Positions 3,182 to 33,971 of a stretch of 64,000 bases of DNA are shown one piece after another. Location of the stretch: sequence record LC739532.1; one strand, 5' to 3'. Made by a program: the position numbers and the translations under genes. This DNA is from Escherichia phage phiWec177. Every line of letters starts with the position of its first letter. Within the stretch, counting starts at the first letter, position 1. A model generated the notes under the pieces. That model saw only the letters and a list, made by a program, of their open reading frames with translations. It was not told the origin of the DNA and did not search any database.

Positions 3182-3423
3182 TGACTTATGTAATTTACTC
3201 CAAAACTGGATGCCCTCAGTGTGAGACTGCAAAGAATTTTGCGAAAGCTCGTGGTATTGACCATGTTGTGAGAATGTTAGGGCAGGATTATGAACTGCCA
3301 GACCTGATGGATATTGCACAGATGCCAGTTCGTCAGATGCCATTCATCATGAAAACTGACGGTCAAAACCTAAAACCTGTTGGAACGCTACAGAATTTTA
3401 TGACAGAGGTGAATAATGCTTAA
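3181..3423 (+). CDS. nrdH: Glutaredoxin-like protein (NrdH-like redoxin)
   Basis: 80 aa with CPQC redox motif near N-terminus; located inside nrd cluster. Confidence 0.7.
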   Translation: MTYVIYSKTGCPQCETAKNFAKARGIDHVVRMLGQDYELPDLMDIAQMPVRQMPFIMKTDGQNLKPVGTLQNFMTEVNNA

Positions 3424-3622
3424 ACGCCTTTGGGAAGGTTTGGTTGTTGATGCACCAGCTATTGTGATTGGTATGCTTGTTGTTAACCTATTTACTGATT
3501 TTGAACAAGGTTCATTGTTTGGAGCCATGTTACTATGGGTTATCTTTGAAATATTAGAGATACAGCTAGGCATCACTGAAAAACTAAGAAAACTCGTTTC
3601 AAAGTTTTCTAAAAAGATTTAA
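3416..3622 (+). CDS. Small hydrophobic membrane protein
   Basis: 68 aa, two hydrophobic helices by eye; overlaps nrdH stop. Confidence 0.4.
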   Translation: MLKRLWEGLVVDAPAIVIGMLVVNLFTDFEQGSLFGAMLLWVIFEILEIQLGITEKLRKLVSKFSKKI

Positions 3623-6566: not shown

Positions 6567-6606
6567 AGGTGATGTGGGTCTTGATAGGCTTACATCACCT
6601 TTTTAT
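6567..6606 (+). terminator. Rho-independent terminator after nrdD
   Basis: AGGTGATGT...ACATCACCT hairpin followed by TTTTT. Confidence 0.55.
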
Positions 6607-6710
6607 TGGATGTTAGATATGACAGATAGTATTATTGGGTTGTTCATAGGTTCTGTCTTACTGGGGTTCTTTTTAGGACTCTCTTATTGTGAATTGAGAG
6701 ATAAGTTAAA

Positions 6711-6911
6711 ATGTTTAAGATATCAAAAGCGTTGATATACATACTCCACATTCTAATCTTCTTCTTTGGTGTTAGCGTTATGGTATGGGGTTTTTCAGAC
6801 CCACAATGGAGTTTCTCATATCATGGTCAGATGGATTTATGGTCATGCTTCAAACCATTTTTAGGATTAGCTATAGCATTCAGTGCATTACCAACTAAGG
6901 TGAAATTATGA
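6711..6911 (+). CDS. Hypothetical small membrane protein
   Basis: 66 aa ORF with hydrophobic stretches; start/stop overlap with next ORF. Confidence 0.4.
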   Translation: MFKISKALIYILHILIFFFGVSVMVWGFSDPQWSFSYHGQMDLWSCFKPFLGLAIAFSALPTKVKL

Positions 6912-12748: not shown

Positions 12749-13084
12749 ATGAAAATCAAAGAGATGAATATCAACATTGTCTTAGAAGAACGTTGGGAGA
12801 ACATTAAGAAACCTGAAAATGGTCATAAGTTCCTTAACAAAATTTTAGTAGCAGCTAAAGAAGAACTGACTGGCAAGATTGCAGCAGCAATCACAATAAA
12901 AATATGTATAAAAGGTCTTCCACAACATCACCAATTTGCGCTTGACGAGTTTAAAGAAAGCTTCTACAATCCAAACAAACAGATGCTTGAAAGTAACTTT
13001 GCAGTATCTACAAGTATCGTCCATGACAGAAGCTTTATCCTTTACAAAAATATGAGAGGTGAGTCATGCAAGCATATTGGATAG
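12749..13084 (+). CDS. Hypothetical protein
   Basis: 111 aa ORF after terminator. Confidence 0.45.
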   Translation: MKIKEMNINIVLEERWENIKKPENGHKFLNKILVAAKEELTGKIAAAITIKICIKGLPQHHQFALDEFKESFYNPNKQMLESNFAVSTSIVHDRSFILYKNMRGESCKHIG

Positions 13085-13257
13085 AAATTTTACTGTCACT
13101 TAGTAGTGTAGCAGTTTTTGTTTACCTTCTTTGCAAGTACTATGCAGAGTACAAGAAGTGTGATTACTGCAATGGGAAGGGTATACAAGAGCAGGTTGTT
13201 GCCCTATGTGTGGTGGTTCTGGTAAAATGTTTAATAAGTAATTTAACAGTAAACTAA
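13066..13257 (+). CDS. Small membrane-anchored Cys-rich protein (possible frameshifted zinc ribbon)
   Basis: N-terminal hydrophobic helix then CDYCNGKG; a second CPMCGGSGK motif lies in the -1 frame (13197-13241). Confidence 0.35.
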   Translation: MQAYWIEILLSLSSVAVFVYLLCKYYAEYKKCDYCNGKGIQEQVVALCVVVLVKCLISNLTVN

Positions 13258-13269
13258 GAGGAAAGTATT

Positions 13270-15636
13270 ATGCGCATGGTAAATGACCACGCAGAAGTGA
13301 TTAAGAGTTCAACTTCTTTGGAGACATCTCAAGCACAGATTACAATGACACCTGAAATGTTCAGCCTTTTGAGTTCTGGTGTATATACCTTTAAAGAAAG
13401 GGCAGTGATTCGTGAACTGTCATGTAACGCAGTAGATGCTCAGAAAGAAGCTGGAAAAGAGAATATCCCGTTCCATGTGCATTTACCTACTCGTTTTGAG
13501 CCTTACTTTGAAGTCCGTGATTTTGGAACTGGATTGACTCATGATAAAGTTATGAGTTTGTACCTAAACTACGGGGCTTCTACGAAGAATGACTCTAATG
13601 ATTACATTGGTGCAATGGGTATCGGTTCAAAATCTCCATTTGCAATTGCTCAGTCATTCACAGTATCTAGCTATGTTGATGGTGTTGTTAATAAGTACTC
13701 TGTTTACCTTGAGAATGGTATCCCTCAAGTAACTAAGCTGACCACTAACCCAACAAAAGAACCTAATGGTTTAGCTGTACGTGTGGCAGTTGCTGACCAC
13801 CGTATTTCAAAGTTCTTTGAAGAGGCTGGTCACGTATACTCATACTTTGCTGTAAAACCAGAAAGTAATATTGTATATGATGACGTGTTAGCAGACATGA
13901 ATGTCATTGCTCGTGAAGAAGGTGTTTATGACGCTATGATTCATAAGCAAAGCTGGCGTTCTAGTGGTAACAGGACAGAGTTTAATGTGGTGATGGGTAA
14001 TATTGCCTATCCAGTTAATATGGAAGCATTACTTGGTGATGATTTCTTCAAAGTCTTGCCAGAGTTTTTCCGTAGGAGCGTAGACCTTGTAAACATTTAC
14101 ATGCCTATTGGTTCAGTTGCTATTGCAGCTTCTCGTGAAGCATTGCAGATGAATGATACGACAAAAAATGTTATCATTGAGGCTACTAAAAAGATAACTG
14201 AAGCCATTACAAAGGATGTTATCAAGAAAGTTAACAGCCAACCTACACTCATGGATGCTGCACAGGCTTATGCTGAGTTACGTTTGAACTCACGAGAGAT
14301 GTTTAATGTTGTGTGTCCAAAGCTAGAGTGGGGAGGCGTTAAGCTTGATTCTCTGGAAGTAGAATTACTAAACATCCGTCGTGGGATTATCTACGCAGAA
14401 GACGGCTCAGTCATTTATGAACGTGACGGTAAAGGTAATATCAAGGTTGATAGGAACGGGAACAATATCCCTAAAGTGGATTATCTTTATAATCCAGTTG
14501 CTTATGTCAAGTTCAACTCTTTAGAGAGTAAGATTCGTGCAACAGCACTTTCCTACACTCAAGAGGCAAGTATGTTCAATATCTTTGGTGCAATGCGTAA
14601 AAGCCAAATTGAACAGTTTTTGTTCGTGATTAATGACCGTCGTAATAAAAATGGCACTGAGAAGACTGTAGGCCGCAATCAGATTCTGCGTGGTGCATGT
14701 CGAGATTACGCCAGTGAGTCAAGTCTGTTTCACAGATATAATGGTATTGTGTTTGTATTCTCGACTGAAAAAGAGCTAGATGACTTAATCAACCTACACA
14801 AACTTGATAAAAGCTTGTTAAAGATTGTGAAGATGTCTGATAAGGAACATCACTATCAGCGTAAAGAAGCTGTAAGAGGTGTTGTAAAACTCTGGAAAGC
14901 TGTTCCAGCAGAAGGTGTAGCCTCATACACAGAGGTGTCAGAAGACTTAGACACAATTGAAGAACCTCAGCTTTACATTAAGGCAGTTGGCGACACAGTT
15001 GATGGTGAATGTTTTTGCTCATCTCCAGAAGATGTAGCTAAGTCAGTTGCTAATGTTATAGGGAAGACAGTCTATGTTTTCCGAAAAGCAAATTGGAAAA
15101 AGATACCAGAAGACTGGATTGAAGTAGATGAGAAGCTCTTGAACGACAGCTTAACTGATGTTCATTGGATTAATCATAACAGGTATATGACACGCATCTG
15201 TATGCGTGGTGTCCTTAACCTTACAAGCTGTTGGATTATTACCAGAAACTTTACGTTCAATAACAGGAAGATTTCTGATGGTTATTGCTATTCACGGGAC
15301 ACAAACAAAACTATCTTCCTAGAAGGTAATGAAGATGCTGTTGAGGCAATGTTCGGTAAAATCCAATACGTTGCTGCACAATTTGCATACACTTACACTA
15401 TTAGTGTGTTGCAAGATTTGAAAAGGTGTCTTGATAATGATACAAAGCTTTACAAGAAAATTAAGAAAGCTGGTGACCGTATGTTTATTAAGGTGACAAA
15501 CTACTTCTCAAAAAGAAAACAAGAAAACTTCTTGCTTTCTCATTTAGATTGGAATAAAGTGTCACCCATCGAAGTGAGTAAGTTCTTGGGCTTTGATGTG
15601 AAGTGTGTTCCAGAAGGGACTACAATTTACGATTAA
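13270..15636 (+). CDS. rIIA: rIIA-like protein with GHKL/histidine-kinase-like ATPase domain
   Basis: N-terminal Bergerat-fold motifs (ELSCNAVDA; RDFGTGL; GAMGIGSKS); 788 aa; followed by rIIB-like gene. Confidence 0.6.
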   Translation: MRMVNDHAEVIKSSTSLETSQAQITMTPEMFSLLSSGVYTFKERAVIRELSCNAVDAQKEAGKENIPFHVHLPTRFEPYFEVRDFGTGLTHDKVMSLYLNYGASTKNDSNDYIGAMGIGSKSPFAIAQSFTVSSYVDGVVNKYSVYLENGIPQVTKLTTNPTKEPNGLAVRVAVADHRISKFFEEAGHVYSYFAVKPESNIVYDDVLADMNVIAREEGVYDAMIHKQSWRSSGNRTEFNVVMGNIAYPVNMEALLGDDFFKVLPEFFRRSVDLVNIYMPIGSVAIAASREALQMNDTTKNVIIEATKKITEAITKDVIKKVNSQPTLMDAAQAYAELRLNSREMFNVVCPKLEWGGVKLDSLEVELLNIRRGIIYAEDGSVIYERDGKGNIKVDRNGNNIPKVDYLYNPVAYVKFNSLESKIRATALSYTQEASMFNIFGAMRKSQIEQFLFVINDRRNKNGTEKTVGRNQILRGACRDYASESSLFHRYNGIVFVFSTEKELDDLINLHKLDKSLLKIVKMSDKEHHYQRKEAVRGVVKLWKAVPAEGVASYTEVSEDLDTIEEPQLYIKAVGDTVDGECFCSSPEDVAKSVANVIGKTVYVFRKANWKKIPEDWIEVDEKLLNDSLTDVHWINHNRYMTRICMRGVLNLTSCWIITRNFTFNNRKISDGYCYSRDTNKTIFLEGNEDAVEAMFGKIQYVAAQFAYTYTISVLQDLKRCLDNDTKLYKKIKKAGDRMFIKVTNYFSKRKQENFLLSHLDWNKVSPIEVSKFLGFDVKCVPEGTTIYD

Positions 15637-15715: not shown

Positions 15716-16825
15716 ATGACTACTAAAACTAAATCACAGATTGACGCAGAAATTTACAAACTGGTTAAAGATGGCAAGCTGACTAAAACAGCTATTGCAC
15801 AGAGATTTAATACTTCAACCCGTTCAGTTGGTCGTGCTGTAGAGCGTCATGAAGCAACCTTAAAAGGAAATAAGAAGGTGACTTCTACACCAGCTACGAA
15901 GACTTTGAAGCAAGTTGCTAAGACCTTTAAAAAGAAAGCTGGCAAACCAGTTGAAAAGGTTGTTAAAGATGCTGTACAGAAAGCTCCGGTAAATAAACTG
16001 CATGAAGCTATGCAGAAAGATGACAAGATTGAGTACATGATTACTGGTGACTCTGTAATTATGACTTACGGTTCAGAGTCTGAAATTGTTGAATCTACTC
16101 ATCCGAACTATCAAGAGATTGTAGTTCATGTTGTGAAAGGTGAGTTTAAGAAAGCCTTTGAACTGATGAACATTCGTAAGTCTATCGAAAACTTCACTCA
16201 GGGGGCTATCACAATCAAAGGTGACAAGCTATTCTACGGTGCTGTTGAGATGCGTTCTACTCTGGTTGACCGTATTCTTCACATGATGAAGACTGGTGAT
16301 AAAGGTTTTGAACGACTTGTAATGTTCTTCGAAAAACTGATGGAAAACCCATCTAAAGATTCTGTAGAACAACTTTGGGGCTTCGTATCTCACCTTGATG
16401 TTGAAATTGATGAAGAAGGCTACATCATTGGTTGGAAGAAAGTATCCACTCGTGAAGGCAAGCTGGTTGACTCCCACACCTACAGAGTACCTAATGATTT
16501 AGGTAATATTGTAGAAATGCCACGTTGGATGGTTGATAATAACCGTAACGTGACTTGCTCTCAGGGTCTTCATGTTGGTGCTTGGGATTATGTTCGTTGC
16601 TTCTCAGGTGATACAATTCTGAAGGTTCGTGTTCATCCACGAGATGTTGTATCTGTTCCAACTGATTACAACGATATGAAGATGCGCTCGTCTCGTTATG
16701 AAGTTGCAGCAATCGTTGATAATCAACGTAAAGTACTGAAAGCATGGGATGGCAAGACTGAAGCTTTTCATGTCATCGTTGGTACTGCTGGAGAACTTAT
16801 CTCTCAGCGTAAACGTGAAATCTAA
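15716..16825 (+). CDS. rIIB: rIIB-like protein (putative)
   Basis: 369 aa ORF immediately downstream of rIIA-like gene; assignment from synteny only. Confidence 0.4.
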   Translation: MTTKTKSQIDAEIYKLVKDGKLTKTAIAQRFNTSTRSVGRAVERHEATLKGNKKVTSTPATKTLKQVAKTFKKKAGKPVEKVVKDAVQKAPVNKLHEAMQKDDKIEYMITGDSVIMTYGSESEIVESTHPNYQEIVVHVVKGEFKKAFELMNIRKSIENFTQGAITIKGDKLFYGAVEMRSTLVDRILHMMKTGDKGFERLVMFFEKLMENPSKDSVEQLWGFVSHLDVEIDEEGYIIGWKKVSTREGKLVDSHTYRVPNDLGNIVEMPRWMVDNNRNVTCSQGLHVGAWDYVRCFSGDTILKVRVHPRDVVSVPTDYNDMKMRSSRYEVAAIVDNQRKVLKAWDGKTEAFHVIVGTAGELISQRKREI

Positions 16826-16842
16826 TAAGTAATTTCTTAAAA

Positions 16843-16866
16843 GGCTGCTTCGGCGGCCTTTTTTAT
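16843..16866 (+). terminator. Rho-independent terminator
   Basis: GGCTGC-ttcg-GCGGCC hairpin followed by TTTTTTATTT. Confidence 0.65.
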
Positions 16867-16894
16867 TTGTATTTTGTGCAGAGTGCTGTATAAT
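16866..16894 (+). promoter_or_regulatory. Candidate sigma70-type promoter (TTTGTA -N17- TATAAT, TG just upstream of -10)
   Basis: Perfect TATAAT at 16889-16894; contains TTGTGCAG motif shared with 21053/21173. Confidence 0.4.
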
Positions 16895-16925
16895 TGTTGT
16901 CACGATAAACTAAACAGGAGAACCA

Positions 16926-17474
16926 ATGAAGAAATTGATTCTAGGTTTGTGCTTAATGTTTACAGCACACTTATCTTATGCAGTTGACTGCCCAGAGCTA
17001 TCAATTAGCCAAAAAGTAAACATGTTAAAAGCTTACCAGTATGGTGAGAATAACATGGGTAAAGGTTGGGGTATCACTCTAGCTGCTATAGCCTTACAAG
17101 AGTCAGAGTTAGGTCTGAAGGTAGAGAATAAAAAGACACATGATTATGGTATTTTCCAGAATCACTTGAAGACTGTTGTAAAGCGTAACAAAATTAGTCC
17201 TAATGTGGCTAAAAAGAAACTCTTAAAAGACTTTGACTATGCTGCGAAGGAAACGCACAAAGAACTTGAGTTTTGGACAAAGGTGCATGGTCAGCCAAAG
17301 TCAAAGAAGATTTTACAAAAAGTTTTAGCATCATATAATGCTGGGTATTCGTACAGAATCCCTAAAGCTAAGAAATATTCTCAAGATGTCTATAACAACA
17401 TGAAAGTTATCGCTCAATGTGAATTTGCAACAAACATTTCTAAGGTAAATCATGAAAAAATTAAGAAAGTCTGA
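16926..17474 (+). CDS. Secreted lytic transglycosylase-like protein (SLT domain) with signal peptide
   Basis: N-terminal signal peptide MKKLILGLCLMFTAHLSYA; SLT-like motifs AIALQESELG and DYGIFQ. Confidence 0.55.
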   Translation: MKKLILGLCLMFTAHLSYAVDCPELSISQKVNMLKAYQYGENNMGKGWGITLAAIALQESELGLKVENKKTHDYGIFQNHLKTVVKRNKISPNVAKKKLLKDFDYAAKETHKELEFWTKVHGQPKSKKILQKVLASYNAGYSYRIPKAKKYSQDVYNNMKVIAQCEFATNISKVNHEKIKKV

Positions 17475-18147
17475 TGAAGTACTGTGCCATGCTTATGACT
17501 TGCATCCTCATGAGTTAGGTCTTGATTCTGACATATGGACTCCAGAACAGTGTAGGGATTTTGAAGACACCGCAAGAGAAGTTGTATGTTCACTCGAAGA
17601 GTTCCACACATCAGAGCCAATTGTGAATGTTGTAGATAAAGAGACTGGACAAACTATAGGTGTGAGTCGTGATAGCTTAGTCATAGTCAATAAAGACCTT
17701 GTAGAAAAAGGGAATCTCATCTTAGCAGATATTGATGGTGTTCTTACAAATTTTAATCACGAAGATTGCTCAACGGAATTGACCGACGGTTCATTCTCGC
17801 AGTATACCAATCTTCTTGATTCTGTAAGAGCAAAGCCGACGTATGTTTTCAATATCATTGATGCAATTGCTAATCATGCTGCTGTTGGACTCTTGACAGC
17901 GAGAGGTGAATCTCAGAGAATACCTACTGAGATGTTTTTAAGGCATAACACAGAGCATGACTACATGCTTTTTATGCGTGGTTTTGGGACTAACTCTATA
18001 AGTGCAGAAAGTTTGAAAGTGAGGATAATTCAGTCTTGCATTCTGCCTTACTTTAATATAGTATGTTTTATAGAAGACACAGAGAAGAATGTGCAGAAGG
18101 TGAACAGAATCCTTCCACACATTAAAACCATGTTAGTTAAACATTGA
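17452..18147 (+). CDS. HAD-superfamily hydrolase-like protein (putative nucleotidase/phosphatase); start uncertain
   Basis: DxDGVL-type motif (ILADIDGVL) followed by LLTARG and IEDTEKN segments. Confidence 0.35.
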   Translation: MKKLRKSDEVLCHAYDLHPHELGLDSDIWTPEQCRDFEDTAREVVCSLEEFHTSEPIVNVVDKETGQTIGVSRDSLVIVNKDLVEKGNLILADIDGVLTNFNHEDCSTELTDGSFSQYTNLLDSVRAKPTYVFNIIDAIANHAAVGLLTARGESQRIPTEMFLRHNTEHDYMLFMRGFGTNSISAESLKVRIIQSCILPYFNIVCFIEDTEKNVQKVNRILPHIKTMLVKH

Positions 18148-18157
18148 GAGAAAACTT

Positions 18158-18622
18158 ATGAACAATATCATTACGGTAGCACTGGACGTTACGGCAAACA
18201 AATCTGAAGTAGTTCGTAACATTATCAAGAGCAACTTTGAGGGTAAAATCTTCCGTGCTGTCAATGTAAAAGCAGACGGTAACATCCGAGAGTATCGTGC
18301 TCTTTTGAATGTTAAGAAACACGTAAAAGGTTCTGGCTCAACGACAGCACATAAAGAAAATCTGATGACTATCTATGATATGGGTATGGCTTCAGAATTA
18401 GGTGCTGAAGGTATTGTTAAAGAAGGTGCTCCGTATCGCTCTTTCAATCTGGAAACTGCTCTTATGCTTTCCTTTACAAGTGGTTCTAAAACAACTACTT
18501 ATCTCTTTACTGATGCTGCAACGGTATCTGCTATTAAGGATAGCACTATCAAAGCTGGCGTAGTTGCTGCTGCAAAAGCTTCTTCGATGGCTGCGAATAT
18601 CCTTGCTAAAGTCCTCGGTTAA
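18158..18622 (+). CDS. Hypothetical protein
   Basis: 154 aa ORF, Ala-rich C-terminus; followed by terminator. Confidence 0.45.
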   Translation: MNNIITVALDVTANKSEVVRNIIKSNFEGKIFRAVNVKADGNIREYRALLNVKKHVKGSGSTTAHKENLMTIYDMGMASELGAEGIVKEGAPYRSFNLETALMLSFTSGSKTTTYLFTDAATVSAIKDSTIKAGVVAAAKASSMAANILAKVLG

Positions 18623-18634
18623 GGTTAAGATACA

Positions 18635-18656
18635 GGCTCCTTCGGGAGCCTTTTTC
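18635..18656 (+). terminator. Rho-independent terminator
   Basis: GGCTCC-ttcg-GGAGCC hairpin followed by TTTTT. Confidence 0.65.
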
Positions 18657-18674
18657 ATTTTAGGAGATTGTTAA

Positions 18675-19022
18675 ATGACATTTAAAGAGTTCTGTCAAGC
18701 TACTTTCATAATTGTTTTCTTAGTTGGTGCAGGTGTCTGGGGAGGATACTCTTACAGAGACTATCAAGTTGCTGAAACTGAGCTAAACAATCAAAAGCTC
18801 ATAAGTGTTGCTAAAGATGCTTATCAGGAAGGATTAGTCACACTGAGCACCAATTACAAAAATGATTTGAAAGATGTGCTTGCTAAGAATAAGCATACAA
18901 AAGAGGTACTAACATATGAAAAAACTAAGCCAGAGTTTTATAATGTTTGTGTTACTGATAACTATGTCAGGGTGTTCAACGAACAAAGTGAGCAGTACAT
19001 TCAAAAACTCCCAAGTAAGTGA
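18675..19022 (+). CDS. Inner-membrane spanin component (Rz-like)
   Basis: N-terminal TM helix then charged coiled-coil-like periplasmic region; contains the embedded lipoprotein ORF in +1 frame. Confidence 0.55.
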   Translation: MTFKEFCQATFIIVFLVGAGVWGGYSYRDYQVAETELNNQKLISVAKDAYQEGLVTLSTNYKNDLKDVLAKNKHTKEVLTYEKTKPEFYNVCVTDNYVRVFNEQSEQYIQKLPSK

Positions 19023-19185
19023 GAGTGATAAGTACACTCAAGAAGAATCACGGTATATCATCAAAGGTAACACAGGCAGTGATGTAGCAGCAGCCCTTGA
19101 GTCCTATCGTGACGGCTTTTACCAGTGCACAATCAAAGCTAACAACCTTATTGACATGATTTTATTAGGAAATAAACAGCAATGA
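18916..19185 (+). CDS. Outer-membrane lipoprotein spanin component (Rz1-like), overlapping Rz-like gene
   Basis: Signal peptide with lipobox-like LITMSGC; starts inside previous gene in another frame. Confidence 0.55.
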   Translation: MKKLSQSFIMFVLLITMSGCSTNKVSSTFKNSQVSESDKYTQEESRYIIKGNTGSDVAAALESYRDGFYQCTIKANNLIDMILLGNKQQ

Positions 19186-20184: not shown

Positions 20185-20964
20185 ATGGGTATTGTAAAAG
20201 TTGTAAAAGGTAACTTACTAGCTGCCTTCAAAAACACAGACATTGAGTTAATTGCTCATGGTTGCAACTGTCGTAACCTCATGGGTGCTGGAATCGCTCA
20301 AAAAATTGCTAAGATTTTCCCAAAAGCTGAAGAAGCTGACCGGAAGTTCCATAAAAAGTTTGGCTACAGTGCCCATGATATCGGATACCAGATGGCTGGT
20401 GAGGTGTCACATGCTCGAACGGAGTATGGTTACATTTTTAACCTATATACACAGTTGGATGTTGGGAAGTGTGCATCATACCGATACTTAGTGGAGTCAC
20501 TAGAAAAACTCCGTAAATTTTGCTGGCTGCACAACATTCGTAAGATTGGTTTACCCATGATTGGGGCAGGTATAGGCGGTTTAGATGCACAAGCTGTGAA
20601 AAGCCTCATTAATAGTGTTATGTATAACGTTGATGTGTACCTATACGTCTATGATGAAGCAATGGCAAGTGTAGTTACCACTAAGTATGCTACCTCAGCA
20701 CCACAATTCTATGATGGTGTCGTGCTAAGTGACGGGAAGACTAATCAAGTTACCCTCTATCAGCTTGTTGATGGCAAGGTTGAGGTTAGTTACCCTCTGG
20801 TTAGTGAGATGGGTATGTGTAACAGTGAAATGTTCCCAGTTGACCCGTTTGGAAGATATGAAGGTGTATTCTTTGATAACTACCCAGCAGCGTACATCTA
20901 CACAACAAATCAGGATGAAGTTCACTACTTGCTGTATTCTAAAAAGTTCAAATTCATAAGCTGA
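20185..20964 (+). CDS. Macro-domain protein (ADP-ribose binding/hydrolase fold) with C-terminal extension
   Basis: Macro-domain signature IAHGCNCRNLMGAGIA ... LPMIGAGIGGL in the first ~150 aa. Confidence 0.65.
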   Translation: MGIVKVVKGNLLAAFKNTDIELIAHGCNCRNLMGAGIAQKIAKIFPKAEEADRKFHKKFGYSAHDIGYQMAGEVSHARTEYGYIFNLYTQLDVGKCASYRYLVESLEKLRKFCWLHNIRKIGLPMIGAGIGGLDAQAVKSLINSVMYNVDVYLYVYDEAMASVVTTKYATSAPQFYDGVVLSDGKTNQVTLYQLVDGKVEVSYPLVSEMGMCNSEMFPVDPFGRYEGVFFDNYPAAYIYTTNQDEVHYLLYSKKFKFIS

Positions 20965-22374: not shown

Positions 22375-22671
22375 ATGAAACTATCAAATAAAGCCCGTGA
22401 AAATCTAAGCAAGTTACTTAACAAAATTGATTTTATTGAAACATCAAGGAATAGTCATGATGTTATGGAATGGTTACACGGCAAAATAAAAGGCCGTCGT
22501 GTAGTAATTTGCTTATGGAATAGTTGCAGGGAATATAAAAAACCTGTATTACAAGTCAATATCTACGATGATACTTTTAAAAGCCCTGTAAAGTCTAAAA
22601 GCGATTTATTAGAATCTTATGAGATAACTGTAAGTGGCAAAGTATCACGTAAAGAGGAAACACCGTGTTAA
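22375..22671 (+). CDS. Hypothetical protein
   Basis: 98 aa ORF after cassette. Confidence 0.45.
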   Translation: MKLSNKARENLSKLLNKIDFIETSRNSHDVMEWLHGKIKGRRVVICLWNSCREYKKPVLQVNIYDDTFKSPVKSKSDLLESYEITVSGKVSRKEETPC

Positions 22672-22997
22672 TGACTGGTATCACTGCAATCATTGCCATT
22701 TTCGCGCTATATAAGGCATATAAAGCCTATAATCTAGCAAATAAGGCAATCACACAGCAGGTTAGCAATAACCTTGTAGAGAGCTTTCTAGGACGCCTCA
22801 GTGATGAGCAAATAAAGCGGCTAGAGATGAGCTTCAGATATAAAGCGAAAACCTATCAGATAAGTGACATCTTCAAAGATGATTTTCAGTTAGTCGATGA
22901 TTATAATTCACTGATAAATGCTTTGAATGTCAGTGACTTAAAAGATTATTACGTTGTAATTGTTCAAGAATTGAGCAAACGAAAAAATTCCTCTTGA
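22665..22997 (+). CDS. Hypothetical membrane-anchored protein
   Basis: 110 aa, N-terminal hydrophobic helix. Confidence 0.4.
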   Translation: MLMTGITAIIAIFALYKAYKAYNLANKAITQQVSNNLVESFLGRLSDEQIKRLEMSFRYKAKTYQISDIFKDDFQLVDDYNSLINALNVSDLKDYYVVIVQELSKRKNSS

Positions 22998-27101: not shown

Positions 27102-27139
27102 ACACCGCAGCGGGGCTAAATAGCCCCAGATACCTGAAC

Positions 27140-27166
27140 AGCCCCTATTTAAAGGGGCTTTTTTAC
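27140..27166 (+). terminator. Rho-independent terminator (tandem hairpins)
   Basis: GGGGCT-aaat-AGCCCC then AGCCCCT-attta-AAGGGGCT followed by TTTTTT. Confidence 0.6.
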
Positions 27167-27340
27167 GTCTATTGAATTCTTATACAATCCCTTTCCCTCA
27201 CCTTCCTAGAATCTTATCAGACCTTAAAAGCAATAACTCTATAGTCTACTCTATAACCTCTTATCAAATCAACTAAGTGGCATTGTTACCAATCCCTTAA
27301 ATATAAGCCCATAACCCGAAAGGGAAGGGCAATCCCTTAA

Positions 27341-27430
27341 ACGCTCTATAACGCTCTATAACGCTCTATAACGCTCTATAACGCTCTATAACGCTCTATA
27401 ACGCTCTATAACGCTCTATAACGCTCTATA
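27341..27430. repeat. Perfect tandem repeat, 9 x 10 bp (ACGCTCTATA)
   Basis: Nine identical contiguous 10-mers seen directly; no spacers. Confidence 0.95.
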
Positions 27431-27599
27431 ACAGCCTTATCAACCTAACTTAAGCAATCATATTAACCCACTCTAAAAAGCCCTTTATAGAGCTTCTCAG
27501 AGCCTTAAAAGAATCTTATAAGGGTGTAAGCTTTATCGTCTCGTTAGTATTCTTGTGAATATCTAAAAAGGACTTGTTAGTGTCTTAAAAGTATGTTAT

Positions 27600-28260
27600 A
27601 GGGGCTATGAAGTTACGTAAAAGTAGCTTAAAAGTAGCTTAAAAGTTACGTAAATGCTAGCCCCCTTAACATTTTCTTAACAATTTCTTAACAATCCCTA
27701 CATAGTTATACTTTTAAGGCACTTGTTAGCAACTTGTTAGCCCCTTGTTAAATCTCTGTTAAGACCACGTAAAAGCCTTGTAAGAGTCTTTGACATAGCC
27801 TTAAAAGCTCCTGTAAAGCCCTATAAAGAGCTATCCATACAGTTGAGGGGTAAATACTAGGAAGAGACTTAAAAGAGCTTATAAAGAGCTATAGAGAGCT
27901 TTTAAGAGGTATGTTTAAGGAATCACTAGGGGTTGGTAACAATACCAATTAAGAGGGAAAGGGAACGATAAGACCAGAGATAGTGACCATGTTAATAGCT
28001 TGTTAAAAAGATTAAACACTTGTTAGGAACTTGTTAATTATCTTAACAAAATAACTCTTTAAAATTAACTTGTTAGCTCTTGTTAGGCATCTGTTAAGAT
28101 TCTGTAAAGACTATTCAGCACTTGTTAGAAAACTGTTACAACCTTGTTAGTTCTGTTAAGAAACTGTTAAGACCTTTGAAGAGTTGTTAAGAAGATGTTA
28201 GAACTGTTAAGAGATTGTTAAGGATATTTTAAAATTTTGCAAAGTACTTGTAAGGGAGCT
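27600..28260. repeat. Dense array of (C)TTGTTA(A/G)/CTGTTAAG heptamers and their complements at about 10-12 bp spacing
   Basis: More than 25 copies counted by eye, many at one-helical-turn spacing; also AAAAGTAGCTT x2 and TTCTTAACAAT x2 direct repeats. Confidence 0.8.
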
Positions 28261-28864
28261 GTTAAGGGCTACCAAGCAGATATACATCTTCTACAGATAT
28301 TTTTGAGTTCCTTCAAAGACCCTAAAAAATGACTTGATAGTCCTATTTTATAAAAATTTTAAGATTCTGAATAATTACCTATACAGTCTTTTAAAAATAC
28401 AGGTAGAAACAGGCTTATAAGATACCTTGTTAGTACCGTGTTAGACCTTGTGAGATAAGGCCTGTAAAGATATTCCTGTTAAGTTTGTTAAAACAGTCTA
28501 TATAGAGGCTTAGTAATACCTAGTGAACACCTATAGAGGGTATCATAGCTGACATAGAGATTAAGAGGTGTATAGGAGCTTCTAAGGGGGTGTAGAGAGA
28601 TGGTTAAGGTGATTGTATAGGCTGTTAAGAAGGTTTGTTAGAGGGCTAGTTAGAAGGGTTATACAGAGGGCTATTAAGACCACTAGATAGTTACTAAGAT
28701 ACTATATAGTACTATATAACTATATATATAGAGAGTAAGATTAAGAAGGCTGTTAAGAAGGATAGATATTTTATTCACATATGATGGTGACCCAGAGGTT
28801 GGGACAACCGATAAAATTTTATAAAAATTAAAAAGCCCCCAATTAAGGAGGCTCTTAAGATATT

Positions 28865-30014: not shown

Positions 30015-30548
30015 CTATAATTGTAGGTTGCATTCTTTACTTACCTCTTCAAGTTTAAACTCAGAGTCCTTAAGTCGTTTCTTATGAACTCTGAACCTCA
30101 TTAGTGAGATGATGATACCAGCTAAAGGGACAGTATACAAGTACCAGATATCATGTAGCTTTGCAGTAATCTGTGTAATTGTCAAATCTTGAGCTATGCA
30201 GCTAATTGCTGATACTGCCAGTAACATTACTAAGAAGAACGCCAGTACCATAACAATACTTAGGCATCCTCTGGCATGGTGTTCATGCTTAATACACTTA
30301 TTCTTTTCGTCAACAACTCTGTTGTAGTCATTTGCAAAGTCTCTGTAGAAGGCTTTCAAGTATTCTTGATTGTAACCTTCAAAGCAACCTGTACCGTACC
30401 AATAATCACCACCAAAATGTGCTATGATACCAGTCTCTCCATTTGGTTTTGTCACTCTTAAAGAAGTATGATGGCAAGTATCCTGAAAATCTATCTTATA
30501 TCTTTCTTCGTAAATCATTTTCCAACCCCTCTCAATCGTTTGTTCCAC
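30015..30548 (-). CDS. Hypothetical membrane protein
   Basis: 177 aa; two hydrophobic helices in C-terminal half. Confidence 0.45.
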   Translation of the reverse strand: MEQTIERGWKMIYEERYKIDFQDTCHHTSLRVTKPNGETGIIAHFGGDYWYGTGCFEGYNQEYLKAFYRDFANDYNRVVDEKNKCIKHEHHARGCLSIVMVLAFFLVMLLAVSAISCIAQDLTITQITAKLHDIWYLYTVPLAGIIISLMRFRVHKKRLKDSEFKLEEVSKECNLQL

Positions 30549-32827: not shown

Positions 32828-32852
32828 TTAGAAAATAAAAAAGGCTCCCGAA
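32828..32852 (-). terminator. Rho-independent terminator (minus strand)
   Basis: On the minus strand GGCTCC-ttcg-GGAGCC followed by TTTTTTATTTTC, just downstream of the lysozyme gene. Confidence 0.6.
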
Positions 32853-32868
32853 GGAGCCTATGAAGATA

Positions 32869-33333
32869 TTACTTTGGATATAGATTGTCAAGATAAATGT
32901 CAGCTTCCTTCCTACGTCTGTTTTTCAGGCCGTTTGAAGTGACCTTCTTACCTTTGACTGTGACCTTGTTCCACCACTGCATAGCTTCTGCACAACCTAC
33001 CTTATTACCATCGTTGTGGCGCTTGATAAATGTAGAGTCCTGCATAGCCGTGATGCCAATGTTGTATGTTTCACTTACAAGTGCATCAAACTCGTTCTGA
33101 GAAGTTGGAACCTTGATGGCTTTGTTCACTGCTGCAACGAACTTTTCAACATCTGCGAGAAGGTACTGTTCAGCTTGTTCAGCGGTAATCTTCATACCCA
33201 TCTTAACAGGTTTACCAGCAATACGGATAGTCCCATACCCAATTGTGGGGATTCCAGCAGAATCTTCGTAAGCCTCCAGCTTAAGACCTTCAAAGAACTT
33301 AATAGCTTCTAAACCTTTTCTTGAGAGTTGCAT
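32869..33333 (-). CDS. Lysozyme (glycoside hydrolase family 24, T4 E-like); candidate endolysin
   Basis: N-terminal EGLKLEAYEDSAGIPTIGYGT catalytic-region motif; 154 aa. Confidence 0.75.
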   Translation of the reverse strand: MQLSRKGLEAIKFFEGLKLEAYEDSAGIPTIGYGTIRIAGKPVKMGMKITAEQAEQYLLADVEKFVAAVNKAIKVPTSQNEFDALVSETYNIGITAMQDSTFIKRHNDGNKVGCAEAMQWWNKVTVKGKKVTSNGLKNRRRKEADIYLDNLYPK

Positions 33334-33971
33334 TATACCCCCACTGCTGGGATAACTGTAACTGTAACTGTTGCCGCATTAGATGTTACATAGCCACCTG
33401 CACCAGTCACTACACAAGTGTAGATTCCTGAATCAGCAGTGGTTGCACCTTCTTTGGTGTAAGTTGCAGTAGTTGCGTCTGGGATGTTTTCCTCACCCTT
33501 CTTCCACTGATAACCTGTTGCACCTGTTGCCACAACATTCAGCGTTAAGGTCTCACCTTCAGTGATTTCTTGATTGGTTGGCTGTTGAGTGATTGATGGT
33601 GGCTTGATAGCATCCTTCAGCTTAGCATTCAGCATTGAGAAGGGCTTAACTCTTGCCAACCATTCACAATAAACTGTATCAACGTCTTTACCATTGATAA
33701 TTGCATATTGTAAGTCCATGAAGAAGTCAGAAGTTCTCATTTGAGCACCGATGCTGTAAAGCAACTCATCACTAAATGGGACTTTATAGTCTGGTTTGTA
33801 GTCAAACTTCTCAACTTCTGCAATATCAGCTTCAGGCCAATATGAACTATAGGTGAGTGGTAAAATAGCCTCTTGATATGTTCTAAAGTCATATCTCTTA
33901 CCAGCCTTTACATTTGCAATGAAGCCCTTCACAAACTCTTTGAAGTCTGGGTAAGTCTTTGCTTTAATCAT
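33333..33971 (-). CDS. Hypothetical protein with C-terminal Ig-like domain; paralogue of next gene
   Basis: N-terminal about 110 aa align by eye with 33968..34339 (shared ...GRFLMDIQYVI / ...SDFFMDLQYAI); C-terminal Ig-like segment YQWKKGEENIPDATTATYT...ADSGIYTCVVTGAGGY. Confidence 0.5.
   Translation of the reverse strand: MIKAKTYPDFKEFVKGFIANVKAGKRYDFRTYQEAILPLTYSSYWPEADIAEVEKFDYKPDYKVPFSDELLYSIGAQMRTSDFFMDLQYAIINGKDVDTVYCEWLARVKPFSMLNAKLKDAIKPPSITQQPTNQEITEGETLTLNVVATGATGYQWKKGEENIPDATTATYTKEGATTADSGIYTCVVTGAGGYVTSNAATVTVTVIPAVGV

Follow-up and report, generated by a model that had tools for sequence, protein, structure and literature searches.

Felix O1-like phages do not carry their lysis genes in a single block. 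Felix O1 itself has no holin-lysin cassette, 'as with coliphage T4' (Whichard et al., 2010; PMC3185647), the announcement of phage Moogle states that Felix O1-like lysis genes 'are scattered around the genome' (PMC4319497), and the same layout was published for phage Meda (PMC6486253). The endolysin, holin, and spanin genes of T4 also lie at separate loci, with a soluble GH24 endolysin and with rIIA and rIIB in the same genome; all this is repeated in the phage examined here. T4 additionally encodes Vs.1, a protein with a 'marginal SLT match' (Nolan et al., 2006; PMC1524935). We analysed 64,000 nucleotides of Escherichia phage phiWec177 (LC739532.1; hereafter the window), with emphasis on positions 16926–19185, which encode an SLT-domain protein and a pair of spanins. 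An earlier note on this DNA, made from the sequence alone, had assigned lysis functions to four open reading frames (ORFs): the SLT protein (16926–17474), the i-spanin (18675–19022), the o-spanin (18916–19185), and a lysozyme (32869–33333). All four were found at exactly these coordinates. It is highly probable that the phage possesses a T4-style dispersed lysis system plus one extra periplasmic enzyme, the SLT protein, which stands outside the canonical lysis pathway.

The SLT gene (16926–17474, plus strand) encodes a predicted periplasmic GH23 enzyme of the Vs.1 family, 182 aa in length, as judged from motifs, homologues, and fold. The protein begins with MKK, continues with LILGLCLMFTAHLSYA and, behind the predicted cleavage site, with VDCPE; the putative signal peptide comprises residues 1–19 (nt 16926–16982). 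It has a positive n-region (MKK), an uncharged core of 11 residues (16 when His15 through Ala19 are counted), and an S-Y-A site obeying the -3/-1 rule. This check was heuristic, based on hydropathy and residue rules, and it agrees with the cleavable signal peptide noticed before. Among the best 150 family representatives, a strongly hydrophobic N-terminal segment starting at about residue 5 is present in 136 of 147. The protein is probably exported by the Sec pathway and cut after Ala19. Its classification as a lipoprotein (via Cys9) was rejected: there is no lipobox, Leu stands at -1, and only five hydrophobic residues precede the Cys. A signal-arrest-release (SAR) endolysin was rejected as well, the longest uncharged stretch being 11 residues, followed by His and the S-Y-A site, and not an anchor of ~18–22 residues rich in Gly, Ala, and Ser.

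Taken alone, the protein matches the Pfam SLT domain (PF01464) with E = 0.0023 and 17.9 bits, under the gathering cut-off of 21.3 bits. Because of this sub-threshold score, its membership in the SLT group rests on transitive homology and fold. Fourteen of the 15 aligned homologues, whose identity ranges from 82% down to 31%, match PF01464 at E ≤ 0.01 (best E = 8e-12). The PDB search with the single sequence gave no match even at E = 10; the family profile retrieved EtgA as the best PDB match (E = 2.4e-4) and also reached goose lysozyme. NCBIfam gave only spurious sub-threshold matches for the SLT protein and for the spanins. The AlphaFold2 model (pLDDT 85) displays a lysozyme-like alpha-helical fold superposable by Foldseek on solved GH23 enzymes, with E59-S60 at the end of helix 48–60; phiKZ gp144 and T7 gp16 are among the structural neighbours.

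The GH23 motifs of the protein are E59-S60, G75..Q78, S136-Y137-N138-A-G140, and Y151, with the catalytic Glu59 encoded at nt 17100–17102. Seven residues (E59, G63, Q78, Y137, N138, G140, and Y151) are invariant in the 15 homologues and in six phage lineages including T4, and S60 is nearly invariant in the 15-homologue alignment. Family-1 lytic transglycosylases are characterized by this combination of E-S, G-x-x-Q, A/S-Y-N-x-G, and Tyr. When 1.84 billion cluster representatives were searched with the profile, 1,245 clusters (50% identity) were retrieved at E ≤ 1e-3, including 605 at E ≤ 1e-10. The best 150 of these 1,245 representatives have a median length of 180 aa. All 150 contain E59, Y137, G140, and Y151 as well as S or T at position 60, while position 78 is occupied by Q in 76 and by H in 66. 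Asp73, which aligns with the Asp of the EtgA motif 'YDIG', is replaced by Ser in 93 and by Ala in 13 of the 150, with Asp in 39; Asp73 was dismissed as a second catalytic residue of the kind known from EtgA and g-lysozyme, since Ser or Ala occurs there in most of the family. Cys22 and Cys165 probably form a disulfide; this pair is kept in Ounavirinae-type, Ackermannviridae, and Vibrio members and is missing in T4. Judged by these features, the SLT protein is almost certainly an exported and active GH23 enzyme.

BLASTP aligns residues 1–155 of this protein with T4 Vs.1 at 32% identity (E = 3e-16), and both possess signal peptides. T4 Vs.1 consists of 181 aa, starts with MRKALLAGLLAISMMAHS, and is encoded between regB and vs. 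The tblastn survey of 50,697 phage records matched the SLT protein in 2,125 of them, the T4 match being the ORF annotated as Vs.1. These matches belong to Ounavirinae; T4 and other Tevenvirinae; Ackermannviridae (Kuttervirus, Limestonevirus); KVP40-like Schizotequatrovirus; and T4-likes of Acinetobacter, Aeromonas, and Klebsiella. In GenBank, members of the family (Acinetobacter phage Kimel, Vibrio phage PG216) carry the notes 'Vs.1; putative lytic murein transglycosylase, putative periplasmic secretion signal' and 'similar to T4 vs.1'. By sequence comparison, the SLT protein is identified as the orthologue of T4 Vs.1. The two are alike in length (182 vs. 181 aa), signal peptide, and the motifs E-S, G..Q, S-Y-N-x-G, and Y, and both are encoded among early-type genes. 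They differ in that Vs.1 of T4 has no cysteines, whereas the window protein carries the Cys22/Cys165 pair common to many members, and in their neighbours, which are regB and vs in T4 but rIIB and a polynucleotide kinase (PNK) gene in the window. The label 'putative lysin' or 'hypothetical protein' used for Felix O1-like phages should read 'Vs.1-like periplasmic lytic transglycosylase'. The literature search on Vs.1 revealed no functional study in any phage, only the comparative-genomics remark of 2006 (PMC1524935).

Both in T4 and in Acinetobacter phage Kimel, vs.1 is located upstream of rI, the gene of a periplasmic lysis-inhibition regulator. Behind vs.1, Kimel has three further ORFs whose annotations also mention periplasmic secretion signals. 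The vs.1 region of T4-like phages may accordingly encode a cluster of periplasm-targeted early proteins. One member of the Vs.1 family is filed under Campylobacter coli (GCA_053226485.1), on a 215-kb contig and 1.4 kb from a gene for chimallin, the PhiKZ nuclear-shell protein; given this neighbour, the 'C. coli' member comes from a jumbo phage. Members of other Vs.1-family clusters that are named or located on long contigs are also phage-sized.

The second murein-degrading enzyme, encoded at 32869–33333 on the minus strand, is a soluble T4L-like GH24 endolysin of 154 aa (PF00959, E = 9e-41; phrog_7, endolysin), which aligns with T4 E. Its assignment as a T4-type lysozyme on the minus strand, 13.7 kb from the spanins, agrees with what had been noted before. 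A characterized relative is LysF1, the endolysin of E. coli O157:H7 phage FAHEc1, with a 1.71 Å structure, lytic activity, and a Glu15/Asp24/Thr30 triad, and explicitly without a signal-arrest-release helix (PMC8228626). The window enzyme is identical to LysF1 (PDB 7M5I) in 146 of 154 residues (~95%). Its Glu-(X)8-Asp-(X)5-Thr triad is read as E15, D24, and T30; none of the eight substitutions falls in the triad, and both enzymes have no SAR domain. The N-terminus of the window enzyme is not hydrophobic and contains no SAR or signal sequence (hydropathy maximum of 0.81 on the Kyte–Doolittle scale). The earlier note had left it unclear which of the two muralytic enzymes is the endolysin; the ~95% identity to a crystallised and active enzyme identifies the GH24 lysozyme as the endolysin of this phage. 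Structure and activity are established for LysF1, from which we infer the in vivo role of the window protein. A review reports at second hand that the Felix O1-type endolysin LyS15S6 is active on permeabilised Enterobacteriaceae (PMC8614784); LyS15S6 may be the product of the corresponding gene.

The gene located upstream of the endolysin gene (33333–33971, minus strand) encodes an Ig-domain tail or virion protein (phrog_3995, tail protein, E = 5e-116; Pfam Ig_3). Its stop codon overlaps the endolysin start (ATGA), and the two genes are translationally coupled. A strong intrinsic terminator revealed by the terminator scan directly 3' of the endolysin gene (32842–32859, minus strand) corresponds to t35 of Felix O1 (PMC3185647, Table 2). 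Because of this overlap and the terminator directly after it, the endolysin gene is regarded as the last gene of a minus-strand unit that begins with virion genes.

The spanin genes display the features characteristic of an overlapped pair. The i-spanin, or Rz equivalent (18675–19022, plus strand; 115 aa), belongs to phrog_1152 ('Rz-like spanin', E = 1e-41). Hydropathy analysis revealed a single N-terminal transmembrane domain (TMD), a 19-residue uncharged stretch at residues 9–27, followed by a hydrophilic remainder; the periplasmic domain contains one cysteine, C92. Its homologues are annotated as i-spanin or Rz-like spanin in many GenBank records, and it is related to the i-spanins of phiEco32-like podophages; no T4 homologue was detectable by tblastn. 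The o-spanin, or Rz1 equivalent (18916–19185, plus strand; 89 aa), matches phrog_4180 (E = 9e-49) and phrog_456 ('Rz-like spanin', E = 5e-5). Its gene uses the +1 frame with respect to the i-spanin; it begins within the i-spanin gene and runs past the end of the latter, the overlap amounting to 107 nt. The protein has a signal and the lipobox I-T-M-S-G-C20 with Ser at +2 (no Asp), which gives a mature protein of 69 aa. Cys20 is present in six of six full-length homologues aligned, two N-terminally truncated gene calls being without this region, and the Cys, Ser+2, Cys71, and the C-terminal 16 residues are kept in homologues down to 79% identity. The o-spanin of Moogle, annotated as such, has the canonical lipobox L-I-S-G-C.

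Many database gene calls for the o-spanin, for example that of phage finno, start at Met17 or later and yield proteins of 68–73 aa. These shortened calls drop the signal peptide, and the lipoprotein nature is therefore lost in the annotations. The 89-aa version starts 9 nt downstream of the ribosome-binding site AAGAGG, and this is the start that gives the signal and the lipobox. The 'classic overlapped pair' of the earlier note was thus confirmed on all counts, with the TMD in the i-spanin, the lipobox in the o-spanin, and the overlap in place. Judged from family and sequence features, 18675–19022 and 18916–19185 are assigned as a genuine overlapped i-/o-spanin pair, with the function deduced from the family. 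As in other overlapped two-component spanins (Rz/Rz1 equivalents; Summer et al., 2007, cited in PMC4319497), a type II inner-membrane protein is combined with a small outer-membrane lipoprotein. Also shared with these systems is the position of the o-spanin gene, which begins within the i-spanin gene, in the +1 frame, and continues past its end. Lambda Rz1 is proline-rich, in contrast to the mature window o-spanin, which contains no proline, and the window pair is located outside any lysis cassette.

The terminator scan also detected an intrinsic terminator just upstream of the i-spanin ribosome-binding site (18634–18651, plus strand), which corresponds to Felix O1 t5 (PMC3185647, Table 2). 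An identical hairpin, AGGCTCCTTCGGGAGCCT, is thus found before the spanin genes (18634–18651, plus) and after the endolysin gene (32859–32842, minus).

The dispersal of the lysis genes that had been proposed for the window, with spanins on the plus strand and the GH24 endolysin on the minus strand 13.7 kb away, therefore holds and corresponds to the layout published for relatives. Scattered lysis genes, spanins, and the endolysin, including its crystal structure, were already known from publications or annotations. In T4, the gene order is alc, pseT.3 (i-spanin), pseT.2 (o-spanin), pseT.1, pseT (NC_000866, 134002–135781). Both in T4 and in the window (17452–19185), a single small gene separates the spanin genes from that of the polynucleotide kinase, but the order is inverted, with the spanin genes upstream of pseT in T4 and downstream of PNK in the window. 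The T4 spanin genes are adjacent with a 4-nt start/stop junction, whereas the window o-spanin starts 107 nt inside the i-spanin gene. The spanin–PNK linkage could be old or could be a coincidence; the i-spanins of the two phages are not detectably homologous.

The survey for a holin covered every ORF of at least 40 aa in the window. Hydropathy scanning revealed the SLT signal and the i-spanin as the sole membrane segments flanking 16.9–19.5 and 32.4–34.4 kb, so that no further membrane protein is present beside either locus, as had been supposed for the holin. Small membrane ORFs are located at 3416–3622, 6574–6735, 6711–6911, 13066–13257, 22665–22997, 30015–30548, and 41311–41868. None of them could be designated as a holin, since all belong to PHROGs of unknown function or 'membrane protein' and none to a holin family of PHROGs or Pfam. 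For Felix O1, gp79, gp116, gp118, gp119, and gp131 were named as possible holins (Whichard et al., 2010; PMC3185647). The window region upstream of rIIA corresponds to the high-numbered genes of Felix O1, where transcription unit 97–131 runs into gene 1, including gp116, gp118, gp119, and gp131. Four small plus-strand ORFs of this region, at 3416–3622, 6574–6735, 6711–6911, and 13066–13257, are considered real; their products have charged C-termini and one or two TMDs.

In Moogle, a 'putative holin' was annotated (PMC4319497), encoded two genes downstream of the tail-fibre gene and convergent with thyA. The window's right end could be aligned within phiWec172 with a single mismatch, and the phiWec172 counterpart of the Moogle protein (121 aa, 92% identical) is encoded ~3 kb beyond that end. 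It has one N-terminal TMD followed by a long helical, coiled-coil-like tail. The holin may tentatively be sought in this off-window protein, the sole candidate proposed in this phage group. No T4 T-type holin was detected with PHROGs and Pfam among the small membrane ORFs of the window or the off-window candidates. A paper on the holin of UE-M6 was discarded as a lead, since it concerns a Schitoviridae phage. Felix O1-type phages are used for biocontrol of Salmonella and E. coli, which makes the identity of the endolysin and of the holin practically relevant.

The following scheme is proposed for this set of proteins. The GH24 endolysin, being soluble and made without an export signal, would accumulate in the cytoplasm and would need a hole-forming holin. 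The i-spanin in the inner membrane and the o-spanin, an outer-membrane lipoprotein anchored via Cys20, would together span the periplasm and, after cleavage of the murein, disrupt the outer membrane. The SLT protein, a product of the rIIA/rIIB/PNK block, would leave the cytoplasm by the Sec pathway, would be processed after Ala19, and, in its subfamily, would probably be stabilised by the Cys22–Cys165 disulfide. In the periplasm, this soluble and basic GH23 enzyme would cleave the bonds between N-acetylmuramic acid (MurNAc) and N-acetylglucosamine via Glu59 independently of the holin. Its most likely task is to loosen or remodel the sacculus to a limited extent in the course of infection. Most probably, the SLT protein cleaves murein in the periplasm as an accessory enzyme and is not the endolysin.

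The earlier note had listed the SLT protein among the lysis functions. Its identity as a Vs.1 orthologue and its location in the rIIA/rIIB/PNK block, and not in the late block, speak against this assignment. The presence of rIIA, rIIB, the Vs.1 homologue, the PNK/spanin linkage, and a Macro-domain protein in one block makes the latter a gene set of the T4-early type. T4 possesses Vs.1 in addition to the full set of t, e, and spanins. Lysis fails in e mutants of T4, and Vs.1 therefore cannot substitute for the endolysin there.

Several points weigh against an accessory enzyme outside the lysis pathway. A lytic transglycosylase, which forms 1,6-anhydroMurNAc, and a g-lysozyme-like hydrolase are indistinguishable from sequence. 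Reverse transcription PCR (RT-PCR) of Felix O1 assigned a common 25-min class to ORF3 (SLT), ORF6 (i-spanin), and ORF35 (lysin), which would also fit a lysis role; we give this little weight, because the major capsid gene scored at 5 min in this noisy data set. Some GenBank records label the SLT protein as 'putative lysin'. The authors of Meda found no holin (PMC6486253), and neither the 121-aa holin candidate nor its 64-aa neighbour matches a holin family in PHROGs or Pfam. With no holin established in any Felix O1-like phage and a candidate outside the holin families, a holin-independent route is formally possible. The literature search revealed no experiment on an SLT/Vs.1 protein of any phage, and its role is a matter of inference.

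The alternative that survives best, possible though clearly less probable, assigns the SLT enzyme a dedicated non-lytic job in the periplasm. This could be sacculus expandability after host shut-off or during delayed lysis, murein modification against superinfection, or the provision of space for an envelope-spanning complex. In the last version, the enzyme would work as EtgA, IpgF, and VirB1 do for secretion machines and would possibly be activated by a phage partner. Secretion systems also have specialised lytic transglycosylases of the IagB, IpgF, and VirB1 type. Among solved structures, the closest relative in sequence, EtgA, is specialised for the type III secretion system (T3SS) and resembles the window protein in size and architecture (~150–190 aa, Sec signal, one GH23 domain). 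The identity between the two is only ~20%, the context is a phage and not a secretion system, and no activating partner or phenotype is known. The alignment of Asp73 with the Asp of 'YDIG' fits this idea, but the residue is not conserved in the family (39 of 150, against 93 Ser and 13 Ala). The location in early-type regions beside periplasm-targeted proteins, such as upstream of rI in Kimel and T4, and the retention of the family in more than 2,000 large virulent phages, each with a separate endolysin, also favour a non-lytic job. This explanation overlaps with the accessory role preferred here and only sharpens it.

A broader and more speculative version, which we consider rather doubtful, views the Vs.1-type exported GH23 enzyme as a fourth, holin-independent envelope function common to T4-like, Felix O1-like, ViI-like, and some jumbo phages. 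The enzyme could pre-cut or remodel the sacculus for abrupt lysis or could act with a phage partner, for instance a periplasmic component of lysis inhibition or the spanin complex, by analogy with EtgA and the T3SS rod. If true, this would provide a function for an unknown ORF that is among the most widely conserved in T4-type phages.

It is unlikely that the SLT protein is the true endolysin or a second, redundant one, exported ahead by Sec and activated upon a collapse of the proton-motive force caused by a small membrane protein. Models for such a system are the signal-peptide endolysin of Oenococcus phage fOg44 and the SAR endolysins of P1 and phage 21. The idea would explain why no canonical holin was found, and it agrees with the export signal and intact catalytic motifs of the protein, the 'putative lysin' annotations, the lack of a holin identified by homology, the shared RT-PCR time class with lysin and i-spanin in Felix O1, and the small two-TMD proteins encoded at 3416–3622 and 13066–13257. 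It is contradicted by the h-region of 11–16 residues with an S-Y-A site, which indicates a cleavable signal and not a SAR anchor of ~20 residues rich in Gly and Ala, and by the presence and conservation of a soluble, signal-less GH24 endolysin that is active in LysF1. The co-occurrence of Vs.1 with t, e, and spanins in T4, where e mutants are lysis-defective, and the location of the SLT gene among rII/PNK-type and not late genes also argue against it. A virion-associated enzyme that cuts murein at DNA entry, similar to T7 gp16, phiKZ gp181, and PRD1 P7, is most improbable: phage GH23 domains are often virion-borne, and phiKZ gp144 and T7 gp16 are structural neighbours, but the Sec-type N-terminal signal is nearly universal in the family, the protein is small, single-domain, and encoded far from structural modules, and the packaging raised in the earlier note is not reflected in the published virion proteomes of Felix O1 (17 proteins) and VpaE1 (22 proteins), where its absence argues against a role at entry.

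Nucleotide comparison revealed that the 16.8–19.3 kb stretch is 100% identical in Escherichia phages phiWec172 and phiWec174. At least 80% of this stretch is covered in 250 phage records, most of them with 90–97% identity, and its ORFs are accordingly considered real and conserved. By these comparisons, the window is assigned to a Felix O1-like myovirus of the genus Felixounavirus. The gene order annotated in relatives is rIIA, rIIB, 'putative lysin' or hypothetical protein, polynucleotide kinase, hypothetical protein, i-spanin, and o-spanin. The synteny rIIA-rIIB-x-SLT-PNK is kept even at 38% identity, in a metagenomic relative.

The first gene of the T4-early-like block is the rIIA homologue (13270–15636, plus strand), annotated as rIIA at the syntenic position in finno, VpaE1, and Moogle. 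It is followed by the rIIB homologue (15716–16825, plus), which matches phrog_609 ('RIIB lysis inhibitor', E = 1e-88) and is annotated as rIIB in relatives. The terminator scan located an intrinsic terminator between rIIB and the SLT gene (16839–16862, plus), equivalent to Felix O1 t2 (PMC3185647, Table 2). Between this terminator and the SLT gene, TATAAT is present at 16889–16894 and the ribosome-binding site AGGAG at 16917–16921; the former may act as a promoter. The rIIB–SLT intergenic region is identical in finno and differs in VpaE1 by one inserted base and one substitution.

Downstream, the start of a T4 PseT-like polynucleotide kinase/phosphatase gene (17452–18147, plus; phrog_3970, E = 3.5e-133; annotated as PNK in relatives) overlaps the 3' end of the SLT gene by 23 nt. 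A 154-aa protein encoded between PNK and the spanins (18158–18622, plus) belongs to phrog_2267 of unknown function and has neither TMD nor signal by hydropathy. The Macro-domain protein (20185–20964, plus; PF01661, E = 1.1e-6, above the cut-off) is of the T4-early type and comparable to T4 Tk.4, which was matched to the Macro domain type (PMC1524935). A distant relative likewise has a Macro gene downstream of its SLT gene.

The plus-strand and minus-strand blocks of the window meet at 27102–28864, a 1.75-kb stretch with no ORF of at least 45 aa. It contains about 10 copies of the 10-bp tandem repeat AACGCTCTAT (27340–27432) and dozens of 11-bp-phased words, CTTGTTAG and CTGTTAAG, in both orientations. 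GC skew across the region flips from -0.47 to +0.46. The region is ~90% conserved across Felixounavirus and annotated as 'repeat_region' in some records; Rfam gave no match for it. By its sequence, it looks like an iteron-type origin or another cis-acting region. Finally, 24 tRNA genes are clustered on the plus strand at 37630–43229 with small ORFs between them, an arrangement typical of Felix O1-like phages, for which 22 tRNA genes were reported (Whichard et al., PMC3185647).

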